From Clostridiales bacterium GWB2_37_7 (GTDB taxonomy: Bacteria > Bacillota > Clostridia > Lutisporales > Lutisporaceae), in assembly GCA_001797185.1 (NCBI GenBank), contig MGOS01000096.1:3448-27951 (forward strand): 24,504 nucleotides of DNA. Direction: 5' to 3'. Positions 2,367 to 24,327 of this stretch are shown here, in pieces. Positions within the stretch are counted from its first letter, which is position 1, and each line of letters starts with the position of its first letter. A program made the translations under genes and the position numbers. The notes beneath the pieces were generated by a model. That model did no database searches, was not told where the DNA came from, and was given only the letters and a program-made list of their open reading frames with translations.

Positions 2367-3490
2367 TTATACCACATTATCAATGCATCCTCACCAGTAT
2401 CTGTGTAGTAGCCTTTACGTATTCCAACCTCGTCAAAACCCAATTTTTTGTATAGGTTAATTGCAGGTGTATTTGTAACCCTTACCTCTAATGTCAAGCT
2501 ATTTATGCTTTCTCTTTGAGCTGCAGCAATCATGGCTTCTACCACTTTTTCTCCGATTTTTTGACCTCTATAGTCAGGGTGTACTGCTATGTTGGTAATA
2601 TGCGCTTCATCTACAATAAACCACATACCTCCATAGCCCACTACTGTGTCTCCCAATTCAGCCAATACATATCTCGCTCTTTGATTTGTCTGCATCTCTT
2701 CCACAAAGGATTCTCTGGACCAAGGTGTTCTAAAACTTAGCTTTTCAATTTCCCATACATCATCTACATCCTTCAGCTCCATAGGTCTTGTCGTGAGCTC
2801 CTGCTTCTTTTCGTACTCCACCTCTGCCTGTGACTTCCTAATATATACCGGTCTAAAGCTGTAGCAGCTTTCAACAAAGCCATTCTCCTGCATTTGTTGA
2901 GCTATAGCTGCACCTGAACTGGCTCTGGGCTGCAGATGCCCCGGAGGTGCAATCAAAATATTGCTTTTTGTTAAATCTATTTGTTTTAATACCTCTACGC
3001 CGTCTCCTAATATTGCAACCTGTTGGTTCAAAGCTGTAAGCTTATCAACAAGCGCCTTGCCATCAATGACTCTATAGTCCTCAAGCTTAAGCAGCTTATT
3101 ATTCTCCCATTTATACAATCCACTATATACGGCACCTCTCTGAGCGTCCAATGTAGGACATACCAGTCCGTTAAAATTAAACAGGTTATATGCCAATGCA
3201 TCCAAGGTAGGTACTGCCGCTATAGGCTTATTAAATACCTGTGCCATTGTCTTTACGGCAGAGGCACCGATGCGCAAGCCTGTAAAGGATCCCGGACCTG
3301 CCGCACAAGCGTATAAATCAACATCCTCAGGCTTCTTACCGCAGGACTTTAGCATATCATCAATCATAAGCATAAGTCTTTGAGAATGAGTCTTACCGCT
3401 GTTTTGGTTATATTCAGCCAGCAATCTTCCATCTTCCATTAATGCTGTTGTTGCTGTGGCACTAGATGTATCAATGGCTAGTATCAGCAT
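2363..3490 (-). CDS. tsaB: single ORF fusing TsaB (t6A37 tRNA modification, N-terminal ~230 aa) to a RimI-type GNAT N-acetyltransferase (C-terminal ~145 aa)
   Basis: The N-terminus MLILAIDTSS...GPGSFTGLRIG is TsaB/YeaZ-like. The C-terminal part (MELKDVDDVWEIEKLSFRTPWSRESF...VHPDYRGQKIGEKV...LEVRVTNTPAINLYKKLGF) is RimI/GNAT-like. No stop codon separates the two parts. Confidence 0.85.
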   Translation of the reverse strand: MLILAIDTSSATATTALMEDGRLLAEYNQNSGKTHSQRLMLMIDDMLKSCGKKPEDVDLYACAAGPGSFTGLRIGASAVKTMAQVFNKPIAAVPTLDALAYNLFNFNGLVCPTLDAQRGAVYSGLYKWENNKLLKLEDYRVIDGKALVDKLTALNQQVAILGDGVEVLKQIDLTKSNILIAPPGHLQPRASSGAAIAQQMQENGFVESCYSFRPVYIRKSQAEVEYEKKQELTTRPMELKDVDDVWEIEKLSFRTPWSRESFVEEMQTNQRARYVLAELGDTVVGYGGMWFIVDEAHITNIAVHPDYRGQKIGEKVVEAMIAAAQRESINSLTLEVRVTNTPAINLYKKLGFDEVGIRKGYYTDTGEDALIMWYK

Positions 3491-4751: not shown

Positions 4752-4878
4752 AACTATCTCATCTTCTTCCATCCAGACTTTACTGTCGGCTTCGGAATTT
4801 AACCGAATCTGCACTGCTACGCACTGCTCGCGGGCTTTACCGCCGGTAGGGAATTACACCCCTCCCTGAAGATTGTTA
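4752..4878 (-). ncRNA. FMN (RFN) riboswitch aptamer
   Basis: The minus strand reads TCTTCAGGGAGGGGTGTAATTCCCTACCGGCGGTAAAGCCCGCGAGC...GGTTAAATTCCGAAGCCGACAGTAAAGTCTGGATGGAAGAAG. This matches the highly conserved RFN element core strings. Confidence 0.9.
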
Positions 4879-16636: not shown

Positions 16637-17269
16637 TTAACTCATTGTGCTGATCTTCCTATTTACTGCTGACAGCACTGCCTTAACGACGGTTTCATTT
16701 TCATCTGCATTGATAATGCTGCAGCCTGACAACAGCTCCTCCTTGCCCCCTAAGGCAAAGCCAATTACACATGCAAATAGCTCCCTATTTGCAACCAGTA
16801 CGATCTGCATGTCCTCTAAATAGAAAGCTTGCCCTATATCTAAATAACCTTCCAATGCCAAAAGAGTCGCATCAGCGATTGCTTTTAGCTTGTTACTCCT
16901 TGACTTAATTCTTCTGCTTTTGCCTTCAAAAAGCTTATCATCGTATTTCAAGGTCACTGTTGCTTCAATGGAATTCTCGATATTATTTACCGATATGCCA
17001 TCTAGCTTTAACCTGGTTTCCTTGAAGTCACTTTCATCAATTTGAGCGATACTTATTACTTTATAATCAATATTTATACCAAATCTTGCATTTATAGCCG
17101 ATTGTATATCTCTAACCAGCTGCTTAATATTTCTACTTACGCCTGCCAATGCATGTATTTCTTCAACTACATTATCCTGACTGCACACCACACTGCAGTG
17201 CTTGATATCTGGCAGCTTGCATATGAGATTCTTTATCTCTTCCGATAAGTTTTCTTTTATGTTCTCCAA
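16637..17269 (-). CDS. hypothetical cytoplasmic two-domain protein, family not recognised
   Basis: The ORF is open from 17293. The ATG at 17293 lacks an SD, whereas the TTG at 17269 lies 6 nt after GGAGGG. Codon usage and length are consistent with a real gene. Confidence 0.55.
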   Translation of the reverse strand: MENIKENLSEEIKNLICKLPDIKHCSVVCSQDNVVEEIHALAGVSRNIKQLVRDIQSAINARFGINIDYKVISIAQIDESDFKETRLKLDGISVNNIENSIEATVTLKYDDKLFEGKSRRIKSRSNKLKAIADATLLALEGYLDIGQAFYLEDMQIVLVANRELFACVIGFALGGKEELLSGCSIINADENETVVKAVLSAVNRKISTMS

Positions 17270-17393
17270 GAATATCCCTCCATTCAGACGCATTCTGCTA
17301 TATATATATTCGACTAAAAAAAATAAACACCTTCCTTTTGAAAGATGTTTTAGCCAAATTTATAACAAATATGATAATATGCTCAAAAATGCA

Positions 17394-17426: not shown

Positions 17427-17957
17427 TTAGAATTCCGGTTCTATTAAGCCATAGTTTCCATCCTTACGCTTATATATTACATTAACCTCTTCGGTATCAG
17501 AATTTGAGAATACGAAGAAGCTGTGACCCAATAGCTCCATCTGCATGGCCGCCTCTTCTGCAGGCATTGGCTTGTAAGCAAACTTCTTGGTTTTTACAAT
17601 TTCGATCTCATCCTCATCATCCTCTGGTCTACTTTCAAACAATGTATCAAATCTCAAATTATAATCCTTCATTTTTCTCTCTAGCTTTGTTTTCTGCTTG
17701 CGCATTTGCCTTTCGAGCTTTTCTATTACATTATCAATCGACATGTACATATCATCAGTAGCCTCTTCACTTCTAATGATAATACCATTAAAAGGAATTG
17801 TTACCTCAAATATATGTCTACCCTTTTCTACACTTAAAGTTGCATGCGCCTCTGAGTTTGGTCCAAAGAACCTTTCAAATTTCGAAAGTTTTTTGTTTAC
17901 CTTATCCTTTAGAGCATCAGTAAGTACGATGTTTCTGCCACTAACTACTATACGCAT
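17427..17957 (-). CDS. hpf: ribosome hibernation promoting factor, long form (RaiA/YfiA/YvyD family)
   Basis: 176 aa. The N-terminus is an S30AE domain (MRIVVSGRNIVLTDALKDKVNKKLSKFERFF) and the C-terminus is a dimerisation domain (GHSFFVFSNSDTEEVNVIYKRKDGNYGLIEP). AAAGGAGAGG lies upstream of the ATG. Confidence 0.9.
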   Translation of the reverse strand: MRIVVSGRNIVLTDALKDKVNKKLSKFERFFGPNSEAHATLSVEKGRHIFEVTIPFNGIIIRSEEATDDMYMSIDNVIEKLERQMRKQKTKLERKMKDYNLRFDTLFESRPEDDEDEIEIVKTKKFAYKPMPAEEAAMQMELLGHSFFVFSNSDTEEVNVIYKRKDGNYGLIEPEF

Positions 17958-18003
17958 AAAAACCTCTCCTTTCGCATCTATTATGCTTTCGGTTATATCT
18001 ATT

Positions 18004-18032
18004 TTATTCTACATTTCAATAAATAATCCTGC
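18004..18032 (-). promoter_or_regulatory. candidate sigma-H-type promoter for hpf
   Basis: The minus strand reads GCAGGATTA - 11 nt - GTAGAATAA. This fits the sigma-H consensus RNAGGAWWW-N11-12-RNNGAATWW as I recall it. B. subtilis yvyD is known to have a sigma-H promoter. Confidence 0.4.
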
Positions 18033-18215
18033 CGTTTTTTATTTTTTATAGTAAAAATTATCAAATTTTTCGACAAGTTTCCCTTTATTTCATATTTTTT
18101 CAAATTTACTCAAATTTTATGTATAAATTTTTATTTATATATTTATGTAAAGCGAACACGTCATATTTTTGCTTTTAAAACTATTAAGCAAAATCAATGA
18201 CTTCCTAAACACTGT

Positions 18216-18368
18216 TTTTCCACATATTTACCCACAGTCATTTTATGTTTTCTGTGGATAATGTGCACAAGTCTGTTGATAACTTGTATTTGGCTTGTTT
18301 AAGCTGTGAAGAAAATGTGAATGGCTGTGCACATTAAATATATATCAAATCGAACAGGCTGTGAATAA
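18216..18368. promoter_or_regulatory. DnaA-box cluster
   Basis: One perfect box, TGTGGATAA (18253..18261). One-mismatch boxes: TTTTCCACA (18216..18224), TTACCCACA (18228..18236), TGTTGATAA (18274..18282), TGTGAATAA (18360..18368). Weaker boxes: TGTGCACAA (18262..18270), TGTGAAGAA (18305..18313), TGTGCACAT (18326..18334). Confidence 0.5.
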
Positions 18369-18582
18369 ATGTGACATGTTTTTGGAGATTTTGTCGAAGG
18401 AGTTATTATTTTGTTACTCAGGAATAGTAAGATAATATCTGGTTATTATCGCCTTCATTTTGGGCATAAAATATGCGCCTCACGCCGCACTATTTTTCGC
18501 TAGAGAACCCTATGGTTCCCTTCGACGGATGCAAGGGGGAGAATCCCCCATTGTATAGGAAATTATACTTTCCTATACAATG

Positions 18583-18606
18583 AAAAAAGCCGCTTTTCAG
18601 CGGCTT
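18583..18606 (-). terminator. intrinsic terminator after the zinc-ribbon gene
   Basis: The minus strand reads AAGCCGC-tgaaaa-GCGGCTT followed by TTTTTC. Confidence 0.75.
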
Positions 18607-18612
18607 AATAAA

Positions 18613-18897
18613 CTATCTTCTTGCGTCGAAGCAGTTCTTGCAATATACAGGTCTTGCGCTTGTTGGTTTGAATGGAACTTGTGTTTCGCATCCGCACTCA
18701 GCACATGTTGTATCGTACATTACTCTTTCTCTCTTTGCTCCTCTGTCTCCGCTTGCATTCTTTCTAGCGGATCTACAGTCCTTGCATCTTGCTGGCTCGT
18801 TTTGGAAACCCTTTTCTGAATAGAACTCTTGCTCTCCTGCTGTGAATACGAATTCATTTCCGCAGTCCTTGCAAACTAAATTCTTGTCATTAAACAT
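18613..18897 (-). CDS. small zinc-ribbon protein with two CxxC-x17-CxxC units
   Basis: The 94-aa product begins MFNDKNLVCKDCGNEFVFTAGEQEFYSEKGFQNEPARCKDCRSARK and continues ...YDTTCAECGCETQVPFKPTSARPVYCKNCFDARR. AGGAAAGAGGGA lies 7 nt upstream of the ATG at 18897. The 70 upstream in-frame codons of the ORF track lie in a structured RNA and have no RBS. Confidence 0.8.
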   Translation of the reverse strand: MFNDKNLVCKDCGNEFVFTAGEQEFYSEKGFQNEPARCKDCRSARKNASGDRGAKRERVMYDTTCAECGCETQVPFKPTSARPVYCKNCFDARR

Positions 18898-18919
18898 GTA
18901 AAAATCCCTCTTTCCTTTT

Positions 18920-19233
18920 AGGCTGGTGTTGGTGATTCGAACTGTTCCGGGATTTCTACTGCCAAGACTTCGTTCTACCCAAGCACACAATACCTTAATA
19001 TTTTCTTTGGCGTACATTTCTAGCTGACCTGGTCTTTGTCCCCACACTCGCCGTCTGGAGGTTTCGCTACCAACATTTGAGTCCCTCACTACTACCTCTC
19101 TCAGCATATAGCAGATTAATTACATGCCATGCTGGACGGACTTACCTCTAAGCCGCACCATGATCGTAGAGCCTTGCTCTGCTTACGTGGATCGTTTTGC
19201 CTGCGACTGGCATCGATTTTCAACCACAGACCT
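18920..19233 (-). ncRNA. unclassified GC-rich structured RNA forming the 5' leader of the zinc-ribbon gene
   Basis: The region is GC-rich in an AT-rich genome and is transcribed from a near-consensus promoter. A compact three-way junction is visible: CCGTC/GACGG (19139..19135 with 19055..19051), CAGCAT/ATGCTG (19134..19102), and GAGG/CCTC (19098..19095 with 19061..19058). The ends are complementary: AGGTCTGTGGTTG (19233..19221) pairs with CAACACCAGCCT (18931..18920) with bulges. Confidence 0.45.
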
Positions 19234-19253
19234 AGTTATTACACCATATCATC

Positions 19254-19282
19254 ATTATATAACTATATTTGCCATGTTTCAA
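19254..19282 (-). promoter_or_regulatory. sigma-A type promoter driving the structured leader and zinc-ribbon gene
   Basis: Minus strand: TTGAAA (19282..19277), 17-nt spacer, TATAAT (19259..19254). Confidence 0.6.
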
Positions 19283-19344
19283 GTACTTTAGGTTTATTTA
19301 GCAAAAATTAGCACAATTAACCTTTTTAATATTTTAATGAAAAT

Positions 19345-19374
19345 AAGTGGGAAAAAGCACTCTTCTTCCCACTT
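19345..19374 (-). terminator. probable terminator after the fliT-like gene
   Basis: The minus strand reads AAGTGGGA-agaagagtgctttt-TCCCACTT followed by ATTTTC. The U-tract is weak. Confidence 0.5.
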
Positions 19375-19382
19375 ATACTATG

Positions 19383-23202: not shown

Positions 23203-24327
23203 CTACTTAAGGAGTTGTAAAACTCCACTCGGTGCGTTATTTGCTTGAGCCAACATTGCTTGTGCTGCTTGTTGAAGGATGTTGTTCTTTGTAGACTCCA
23301 TGATTTCCTTCGCCATATCTACGTCTCTGATACGAGATTCTGCAGCTGTTAAGTTTTCTGAAGATGTATCTAAGTTCTTTACAGTATACTCTAATCTGTT
23401 TTGAATAGCACCTAGATCTGATCTTCTGCTAGAAACTGTATCAATAGCAGCTTGTACTGATGTCATTGCATTAGCAGCATTTGTTGTAGAACTAACGTCT
23501 AATGCATTTACAGCTAATGCAGTAGCGCCAGTTGCTGCAATTGTAACTCCAAGTTTTTGTGAAGGATCATTTTCTGATCCAATTTGTAAACTCACTGCAG
23601 CAGCTGCAGTTGTTATAACTGTACCTGCCGCTCCGCCGCCTGCTACTGAAGCTTCAATACCTGCAGAAGTTTGAGAGCCATTAACTGTAATCTTGATCCC
23701 CATTTTATCGAAATCCAAAACGCCTGCTGAACCATCAGCAAGAGTTATATTTTGTGTGTCACCAGAGCCTGTTGCTGTCATAATATAATCACCAGCAGCA
23801 GCTCCTTCAGTTATTGTATAAGTTTCACTAGCATCAGCACCACTAATATCAATTGCTGTAATACCAGCTGAGCCTACCTCTAAACCTGAAACGTCTAGTT
23901 GTACTCCAAAAGTACCATTTAATAATGTTTGACCATTAAATTTTGTTGACAAAGCAATTCTGTCAATTTCTGTAGTTAATGCTGTAATTTCAGAAGTAAT
24001 AGCAGTTCTATCATTAGCAGCTAAAGTACCATTTGAAGCTTGTGTTGCCAGCTCATTCATTCTTTGTAGAATTGATTGAGTTTCGTTTAATGCACCTTCT
24101 GCAGTCTGAATCATAGAAATACCATCCTGAGCATTTCTGCTAGCCTGATTAAGACCTCTAATCTGACCTCTCATCTTTTCAGAGATAGAAAGACCAGCAG
24201 CGTCATCGCCGGCTCTGTTGATTCTTAAACCAGATGATAGTTTTTCAATAGATTTTGCACTTTTATCGTTGTTGACTCCCAATTGACGGTTTGCGTTCAA
24301 CGCCATTATATTGTTGTTAATTCTCAT
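23203..24327 (-). CDS. fliC: flagellin
   Basis: 374 aa. Conserved N-terminus MRINNNIMALNANRQLG...GLRINRAGDDAAGLSISEKMRGQIRGLNQASRNAQDGISMIQTAEGAL and C-terminus LGAIQNRLEYTVKNL...ILQQAAQAMLAQANNAPSGVLQLLK, with an Ala/Gly/Thr-rich variable middle. AAGGAGGAA lies upstream of the ATG. Confidence 0.9.
   Translation of the reverse strand: MRINNNIMALNANRQLGVNNDKSAKSIEKLSSGLRINRAGDDAAGLSISEKMRGQIRGLNQASRNAQDGISMIQTAEGALNETQSILQRMNELATQASNGTLAANDRTAITSEITALTTEIDRIALSTKFNGQTLLNGTFGVQLDVSGLEVGSAGITAIDISGADASETYTITEGAAAGDYIMTATGSGDTQNITLADGSAGVLDFDKMGIKITVNGSQTSAGIEASVAGGGAAGTVITTAAAAVSLQIGSENDPSQKLGVTIAATGATALAVNALDVSSTTNAANAMTSVQAAIDTVSSRRSDLGAIQNRLEYTVKNLDTSSENLTAAESRIRDVDMAKEIMESTKNNILQQAAQAMLAQANNAPSGVLQLLK

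Follow-up and report, generated by a model that had tools for sequence, protein, structure and literature searches.

The DNA analysed here, 24,504 nucleotides (nt) of Clostridiales bacterium GWB2_37_7 (contig MGOS01000096.1, positions 3,448 to 27,951) and called the window in what follows, carries a raiA motif RNA, also named ModT, which is followed by a small gene encoding a protein with two zinc fingers (zf) and then by the gene of the hibernation promoting factor (hpf, or raiA), the neighbour that gave the motif its name. All coordinates are window positions and all features of the raiA region lie on the minus strand (Table 1). Flagellar genes related to flaG, fliD, fliS and flgN are placed upstream of the promoter of the RNA, and the order along the strand is promoter, raiA, a short tail, the zf open reading frame (ORF) and a terminator, after which an AT-rich spacer of about 630 nt with a promoter-like site (18365..18337) leads to hpf. 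This makes hpf the second gene downstream of raiA in the window, and in most of the close relatives it also comes after the zf gene; comFC is not the upstream neighbour.

In a scan of the whole window with Rfam 15 at curated thresholds, the region 19240..19015 matched RF03072 at 180.9 bits (gathering score 101.3, E = 1.9e-46), and a permissive local scan of 17950..19320 reproduced the raiA match and gave nothing credible besides it. The window agrees with the model at almost every one of its upper-case consensus positions, and the first 58 nt of raiA are nearly invariant across 58 loci. The nearest relatives of the locus belong to the Clostridia and the Lutisporaceae. An initial annotation, made from the letters of the sequence, had called the RNA unclassified, although it named the raiA motif as a candidate from the hpf neighbourhood. 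Since the match to a described family is confident and covers the full length of the model, the RNA is known and not novel, and the candidate named there, with hpf indeed found downstream, is the right one. We can state securely that this RNA is a member of the raiA/ModT family in an uncultured Lutisporaceae-like Clostridium. As an RNA it is ordinary, another copy in a family already known from more than 2,700 species; Soares 2024 found 2,377 distinct raiA sequences in 2,720 species (PMC10861870). The higher GC content noticed at first is real (0.47-0.51 over 18950..19250 vs 0.26-0.39 in the flanks), whereas the size then given, about 315-350 nt, merges the 226-nt raiA RNA with a separate, lineage-specific tail of 117 nt (19014..18898) that lies outside raiA.

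Structure and covariation of the raiA RNA

Homologous loci were collected in two ways, 80 of them from GTDB representative genomes through the downstream protein and 120 from metagenomes through a degenerate pattern of the raiA core. For covariation, 50 raiA sequences were aligned with MAFFT and the Rfam pairs were mapped on by hand. In these homologues 95.4% of the cells of the raiA helices were paired, as against 29-44% when the 3' partners were slid by 1-3 columns, and 24 of the 43 pairs had changed on both sides. The covariation score was 0.442 with a shuffled mean of 0.154, and none of 500 shuffles reached the observed value.

Covariation supports P1, the lower and the apical stem of P3, P4 and the AUCG/CGAU helix individually. 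The closing stem P1 (helices 1-2, 17 pairs) was 89.5% and 100% paired, with changes on both sides in 10 pairs; the three outermost P1 pairs of the window itself are non-canonical. The lower stem of P3 was 98.6% paired with 3 covarying pairs, and the apical hairpin of P3 (19180..19168), which had already been recognized in the initial annotation, was 94.6% paired with compensatory changes in all six of its six pairs. The three-way junction described there is identical to the junction of the Rfam raiA alignment, and P4, which was paired in 100% of the 50 homologues, covaries in 4 of its 5 pairs; P5 and P6 were left out of the pair counts since they vary in length and thereby disrupt the MAFFT alignment. 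By our own mapping the junction helices correspond to P4, P5 and P6 of the published model, which has about 51 highly conserved nucleotides and two pseudoknots (Pk1 and Pk2).

The AUCG/CGAU helix was paired in 100% of the 50 sequences and G-C was exchanged for C-G in 3 of them; it is probably one of the published pseudoknots. This helix is the inner part of a hairpin first proposed at 19187..19227 and that part holds, whereas the outer GUGG/CCAC pairing of the same hairpin found no support: the changes in GUGG (G17-to-A and U18-to-A) are compensated in the 3' strand of P1 (columns 302 and 301) and not in CCAC. A single-sequence fold of the whole leader was uninformative, as can happen for a pseudoknotted RNA, its minimum free energy (MFE) being no better than that of shuffles (z = +0.87). 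A pairing of the invariant 5' bases 10-20 with bases 32-42, proposed by RNAalifold, was dropped in favour of the Rfam pairing because no variation supports it and it clashes with the compensated pairs of P1.

Table 1. Positions of the raiA region in the window, with the two tRNA pairs found in front of zf in other genomes
Feature	Position	Strand	Remarks
flaG-fliD-fliS-flgN-like genes	upstream of raiA promoter	-	ending at terminator 19376..19343
sigma-A-type promoter	19282..19254	-	-35 TTGAAA 19282..19277, 17-nt spacer, -10 TATAAT 19259..19254
raiA motif RNA (ModT), RF03072	19240..19015	-	226 nt, model positions 1-209 of 209
Pseudoknot-type helix	AUCG 19217..19214 / CGAU 19194..19191	-	alignment columns 24-27 with 47-50
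Three-way junction	19139..19051	-	Rfam alignment; P4 CCGUC 19139..19135 / GACGG 19055..19051
P5 hairpin of junction	19134..19102	-	CAGCAU..AUGCUG; Rfam alignment
P6 of junction	19098..19058	-	GAGG 19098..19095 / CCUC 19061..19058; AGUA/GAA internal loops
Tail hairpin (predicted), long, imperfect	18994..18920	-	5' GGUAUUGUGUG..GG..AGAAC; 3' GUUC..CC..CACCAGCCU
Candidate anti-Shine-Dalgarno segment GUAGAAAUCCC	18959..18949	-	apical part of tail hairpin
Ribosome-binding region of zf gene	18915..18898	-	purine-rich Shine-Dalgarno sequence GGAAAGAGGGA 18915..18905
Candidate partner of anti-Shine-Dalgarno segment GGGAUUUUUAC	18908..18898	-	3' part of Shine-Dalgarno sequence and whole spacer, up to AUG 18897
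Two-zinc-finger gene (zf)	18897..18613	-	94 amino acids; ATG 18897 behind strong purine-rich Shine-Dalgarno sequence
Intrinsic terminator closing raiA-zf unit	18606..18580 (18606..18587 and U-run)	-	8-bp GC-rich stem AAGCCGCT/AGCGGCTT
Long-form hpf/raiA gene	17957..17427	-	Pfam Ribosomal_S30AE and C-terminal domain
tRNA pair upstream of zf, locus L043	2819-2969		zf at 3001
tRNA pair upstream of zf, locus L058	1004-1153		zf at 1186

The zinc-finger gene and its linkage to raiA

The product of zf has two Cys4 modules, CxxC-x25-CxxC and CxxC-x17-CxxC, with a basic linker between them. It matches the Pfam families zf_Tbcl (PF13451; 3e-26, 91.6 bits, cut-off 24) and zf_Tbcl_2 (PF23477; 1.5e-18, 66.7 bits, cut-off 27) as well as TIGR04272 of NCBIfam, the CxxC-x17-CxxC family (65.4 bits, cut-off 36). 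A total of 2,686 homologues were found, and in an alignment of 44 of them none of the eight cysteines varies. In the AF2 model (mean pLDDT 86.8) each of the two modules consists of a beta-hairpin and a helix, and the linker between them is predicted with less confidence. In the PDB, Foldseek found no similar structure at E < 0.1 and phmmer gave nothing meaningful, and the exact protein sequence is not on record. Among CxxC-x17-CxxC proteins zinc binding has been shown for archaeal small proteins only (PMC12704099).

A mechanical ORF of 164 amino acids (18613..19107, minus strand) carries the zf gene up into raiA, and public gene calls of 127-164 amino acids in relatives (P0002, P0003, P0004, P0006 and P0008) present the same over-extension. 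This is an annotation hazard, as gene callers often make the extension and can in this way hide the raiA RNA.

The promoter scan gave 11 of 12 consensus matches for the promoter of the RNA, in agreement with the near-perfect sigma-A promoter announced by the initial annotation, and transcription would start near 19247. The position of this promoter is conserved: in nearly all of 77 raiA-zf loci a TATAAT box is found 18-25 nt upstream of the GGTCTGTGG core and a TTGnnn box 17 nt farther up, and a conserved sigA motif upstream of modT was also reported in the ModT paper (PMC11706538). Promoter and terminator scans of the window gave no promoter-like or terminator-like site between raiA and ATG 18897, so that the lack of a terminator in front of the zinc-ribbon ORF, noted at the outset, is borne out. 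Among 80 raiA-zf loci only one, weak terminator-like site lies between raiA and zf, and in 65 of 77 related loci such a site follows within 120 nt of the zf stop. An internal promoter for zf was considered and rejected: the scan found none, and in relatives the gaps of 33-46 nt are too short to leave space for a separate one.

The simplest reading of these sequence signals is that promoter, raiA, tail (where it exists), zf ORF and terminator form one transcription unit, and we think it probable that the zf ORF is co-transcribed with raiA. The transcript would then pass the 3' end of raiA, run through the 117-nt tail and the zf ORF and end at the terminator behind it. Taken as a whole, the locus is with high probability a raiA RNA behind a near-consensus sigma-A promoter, with a transcript that most likely continues through the tail into the zf ORF. 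The raiA-zf block is 86-89% identical to that of the relatives L004-L006, the flanks being about 70-73% identical.

The arrangement recurs in other genomes. Among the matches listed, 78 zf loci extend far enough upstream to be judged, and in 58 of them raiA is the direct upstream neighbour in the same orientation; zf in turn comes directly downstream of raiA on the same strand in 20 of 87 metagenome raiA loci with at least 700 nt of downstream sequence, a figure of 23% that comes from the first 120 pattern matches listed and includes some near-duplicate contigs. The distance from the 3' end of raiA to the ATG falls into narrow ranges: of 22 metagenome loci, 20 have a gap of 33-46 nt, the genome loci of the short-gap type have 37-41 nt, and in the clade of the window the gap measures 108-125 nt. 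Where zf is absent, the distance from raiA to hpf varies from 13 to 3,633 nt.

Some observations weigh against a close tie between the two. Twenty of the 78 zf loci have no Rfam raiA match nearby and about three quarters of the raiA loci have no zf gene, so the link is not obligatory. Moreover, both the co-transcription and the translational masking discussed below are read from sequence only.

An alternative explanation is that raiA and zf are merely neighbours, with a free-standing RNA that ends or is trimmed at its own 3' end and an ORF expressed by weak read-through, the two having no functional link. RaiA is known as a trans-acting RNA found in many gene contexts (PMC10861870, PMC11706538), small genes behind strong stable-RNA promoters may simply hitch-hike, and two of the 20 zf genes that lack raiA are placed behind tRNA genes. 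Nevertheless, chance adjacency would not yield counts of this size, on the same strand and with a gap of 33-46 nt, across distant Clostridia. The terminator lies after the ORF and not before it, and a conserved anti-Shine-Dalgarno element tailored to the zf start region would imply selection on expression from the raiA transcript. We regard simple neighbourhood as rather unlikely, though it is the alternative that survives best. That the zf protein is functionally tied to raiA is a tentative proposal, and it is likewise possible, if doubtful, that in about a fifth to a quarter of the raiA lineages (Clostridia-like) raiA is the 5' part of an mRNA, with the zf protein as its dedicated partner, effector or target or under its control in cis.

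Some loci with other gene orders were also observed. In Petroclostridium sp. X23 and in a Clostridia metagenome-assembled genome raiA is absent at the locus and two tRNA genes are found directly upstream of zf on the same strand (Table 1), zf thus riding again behind stable-RNA genes. In two Syntrophomonas loci (L040 and L048) hpf comes after zf in the same orientation with no raiA present, and the zf-hpf adjacency thus persists without raiA. In ten metagenome loci (L085, L095, L119, L153, L155, L162, L166, L179, L189 and L192) the distance between raiA and hpf is nearly constant at about 3.3-3.6 kb, which suggests another conserved gene block in between in that lineage.

Downstream of the zf stop, 18606..18470 on the minus strand contains four strong consecutive hairpins (-64.5 kcal/mol over 153 nt), the terminator being the first. 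Next comes a 13-bp palindrome, UUGUAUAGGAAA...UUUCCUAUACAA, at about 18577..18547, which recurs right after zf in L009 and L016; the remainder of this array is not conserved in L001-L006. Just downstream of hpf an ORF of 218 amino acids (16637..17293, minus strand) matches nothing in Pfam, and nothing in NCBIfam above the cut-off.

The tail and the ribosome-binding site of zf

The tail is conserved in 34 long-gap loci of the Lutisporaceae-like clade and gave no Rfam match down to E = 1 in the permissive local scan. Across these 34 relatives AGAGGGAUUUU, in the ribosome-binding region of zf, hardly varies at all. The pairing of the tail was derived from a ribosum-scored consensus together with explicit pair counts, as RNAalifold at default settings on the MAFFT alignment of the tail gave almost no structure, the helices being offset between subclades. 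In the 34 loci 89.2% of the cells of the tail hairpin were paired, compared with 27-57% in slid controls, and the pair 35-108 covaries cleanly, being GC in 18 sequences and AU in 13. When the Shine-Dalgarno (SD) sequence is kept single-stranded, the same tail architecture is predicted in every relative. On the sequences compared, the hairpin is specific to the Lutisporaceae-like clade. We may also speculate that a raiA species released by processing has its 3' end shielded by this hairpin, in the way of the terminator stem in the long ModT isoform.

The apical part of the hairpin contains a segment complementary to the start region of zf. The two strings GUAGAAAUCCC and GGGAUUUUUAC can form a helix of 11 bp at -16.1 kcal/mol, which none of 200 shuffles equalled, and this helix dominates the MFE fold of the tail of the window (-23.1 kcal/mol vs -17.6 kcal/mol with the SD forced free). 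In every one of the 34 relatives, no segment forms a better duplex with the SD/AUG region than the homologous apical one. In an anchored alignment 88.1% of the cells of this helix were paired (33-64% in slid controls) and 3 pairs had compensatory changes; there were 15 double-change cells, a number that 0 of 500 shuffles reached. The distal pairs vary in step with the spacer, with GUA..UAC, UUAA..UUAA in L022 and CAU..AUG in L024 and L026, and the run lengths match as well, as in L030, where a G..C pair goes with five A's vs five U's, and in L035, with four A's vs four U's.

The two apical G-C pairs of the tail hairpin compete with the anti-SD helix and the lower stem does not, hence the anti-SD segment could act either through an alternative fold or by forming a pseudoknot between loop and tail. 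If GUAGAAAUCCC does pair with GGGAUUUUUAC, translation of zf would be held down or switched despite very strong transcription. The covariation and duplex counts lend moderate support to the anti-SD:SD helix as a conserved element that masks the SD and the start codon, and we put at about even chances that the tail really masks the ribosome-binding site of zf and thereby throttles or switches its translation.

Against this masking three points have to be considered. The helix is largely a run of A's against a run of U's, and no more than 18 of the 34 sequences do better than dinucleotide shuffles at p <= 0.05; its covariation comes from a hand-anchored pseudo-alignment of related sequences; and the commoner short-gap loci present no consistent structure masking the SD, for which reason the device would be clade-specific.

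A different proposal would give raiA itself a role in cis, similar to a riboswitch, in which the raiA fold, alone or together with a ligand or protein, opens or shuts the ribosome-binding site of zf through the tail. Rfam types the family as 'Cis-reg; riboswitch', RNA and ORF lie on the same strand at a fixed short spacing with no terminator or promoter ahead of the ORF, and in several relatives the folds of the tail with the SD free and with the SD paired are nearly isoenergetic. Moreover, in the subclade L007-L016 and L021 the 5' strand of P1 could pair with the 3' strand of the tail at -15 to -20 kcal/mol, with z down to -4.3. In the window, however, this pairing is at chance level and it is weak in most relatives, and we regard it as a minor possibility. 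A pairing of the two ends of the leader (19233..19221 with 18931..18920) had been part of the initial annotation; it amounts to -12.9 kcal/mol with z = -0.94 vs shuffles, and 18931..18920 is the 3' strand of the local, covarying tail hairpin, whose helix is worth -16.5 kcal/mol. The test for a platform competing with the closing stem of raiA (P1 5' strand with tail 3' strand) therefore fails in the window, where the SD-masking helix sits within the tail itself, and the short-gap loci show no expression platform overlapping P1. Published deletion phenotypes were rescued in trans and no evidence for small-molecule binding in vitro was obtained (PMC10861870, PMC5737381, PMC12968392), and most raiA loci carry other downstream genes at variable distance, as seen from the spread of 13-3633 nt to hpf. 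A true riboswitch-like role of raiA in cis is thus the weaker rival and, in our opinion, improbable.

Two other explanations can be set aside. That the region is protein-coding, with the 164-amino-acid ORF as the real gene and the 'RNA' as its N-terminal part, has hardly any chance of being right, since the extension, even if it exists mechanically and is mirrored by the database calls mentioned above, overlaps a full-length raiA match with RNA-type compensatory changes, most homologues are listed at 89-100 amino acids and start at a conserved M(F/Y)xDK, a strong SD precedes ATG 18897 and both Pfam domains lie inside the 94-amino-acid form. A relationship of the leader to group I introns is just as remote: two short strings do resemble parts of the group I intron of the window itself, as the initial annotation had pointed out, yet the best local alignment between the tail and that intron is matched or surpassed by 167 of 500 shuffles, no match to Intron_gpI (RF00028) was found in 17950..19320 even at E <= 1, the ATGTACGCCAAAG block is not conserved in relatives and the other block belongs to the tail hairpin.

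The group I intron in question (RF00028, 23211..22895, minus strand, 81.6 bits) starts 8 nt past the apparent stop of a flagellin ORF (23203..24327, minus strand) of 374 amino acids that ends in ...GVLQLLK, and it may split the flagellin gene at its very 3' end. The window also contains an FMN riboswitch aptamer (RF00050) at 4757..4877 on the minus strand, with 119.5 bits vs a gathering score of 66.2.

Comparison with known systems and significance

Stable-RNA operons that carry a protein gene are known, an example being OLE RNA with the oap genes. The unit proposed for the window resembles the OLE-oap operons in that a highly expressed structured RNA and a small protein gene would share one promoter and one terminator. 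It also shares features with translational riboswitches and other SD-sequestering leaders, namely a structured leader, an SD and start codon that an upstream segment could sequester and an alternative fold with the SD free. Unlike in translational riboswitches, the candidate sequestering element of the window is a separate hairpin that shares no bases with P1 of raiA, and the published data on raiA show action in trans.

The raiA motif RNA was first described in 2017, with no evidence of small-molecule binding in vitro (Weinberg 2017, PMC5737381), and it is regarded as an abundant, stable, trans-acting RNA of Clostridia and Actinomycetota (PMC10861870, PMC11706538, PMC12968392), expected in a single copy per genome. 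In C. acetobutylicum it is very abundant, and the sporulation and aggregation defects of a knock-out were rescued in trans (PMC10861870). Structures of the RNA have been solved by cryo-electron microscopy, and KhpA/KhpB bind it with an affinity in the low-micromolar range, the biochemical function of the RNA being still unknown (2026, PMC12968392). The RNA of the window conforms to the family in its full-length match to the model, conserved core, P1, P3, P4-P6 junction, pseudoknot-type helix and covariation, and also in its sigma-A promoter and its Clostridia host. Its context, with hpf downstream and flagellar genes upstream, is one that Weinberg 2017 noted as well (PMC5737381); typical neighbours such as hpf and comFC are usual for the family without defining it.

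Soares 2024 reported comFC upstream in 74% and raiA/hpf downstream in 66% of the cases, with no strong candidate protein partner evident (PMC10861870). The window differs from such usual loci by having flaG-fliD-fliS-flgN in the place of comFC, and a further difference from the raiA motif as described is what comes after the RNA: a conserved hairpin particular to the clade and, with no terminator in front, the small zf ORF.

The main texts of the raiA papers searched make no mention of the zf neighbour, although the supplementary gene table of Soares 2024 could list zinc-ribbon genes, and no paper was found that joins 'raiA motif' and 'zinc'. In C. difficile, where the sigA promoter of ModT is conserved, there are a short and a long isoform, the long one running into a downstream terminator (PMC11706538). 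The transcript proposed here would be like this ModT(L) of C. difficile, C. perfringens and P. sordellii in running past the raiA core to an intrinsic terminator. The 3' extension of ModT(L) is poorly conserved beyond close relatives and its terminal stem may stabilise the RNA, a likeness that we propose for the window as well. Unlike that of ModT(L), the extension in the window would be about 660 nt long and would contain a translatable ORF and an anti-SD hairpin instead of a short terminator stem.

Few bacterial RNAs of unknown biochemical function are as abundant and as well conserved as raiA/ModT, and the published neighbourhood analysis gave it no convincing partner. The zf gene, which appears to share one promoter and one terminator with raiA, offers a concrete candidate for such a protein link. 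The arrangement recurs across many Clostridia, including contigs of human gut metagenomes, and, in the form seen in the window, it is carried by the cultured species Lutispora thermophila DSM 19022 (L018) and L. saccharofermentans (L017); in the clade of the window the zf gene would in addition have its own conserved, predicted translational brake. If the tie between raiA and zf is true, it would supply the protein link that is missing from the published gene-context analyses and offer a direct experimental route to the biochemical function of raiA.

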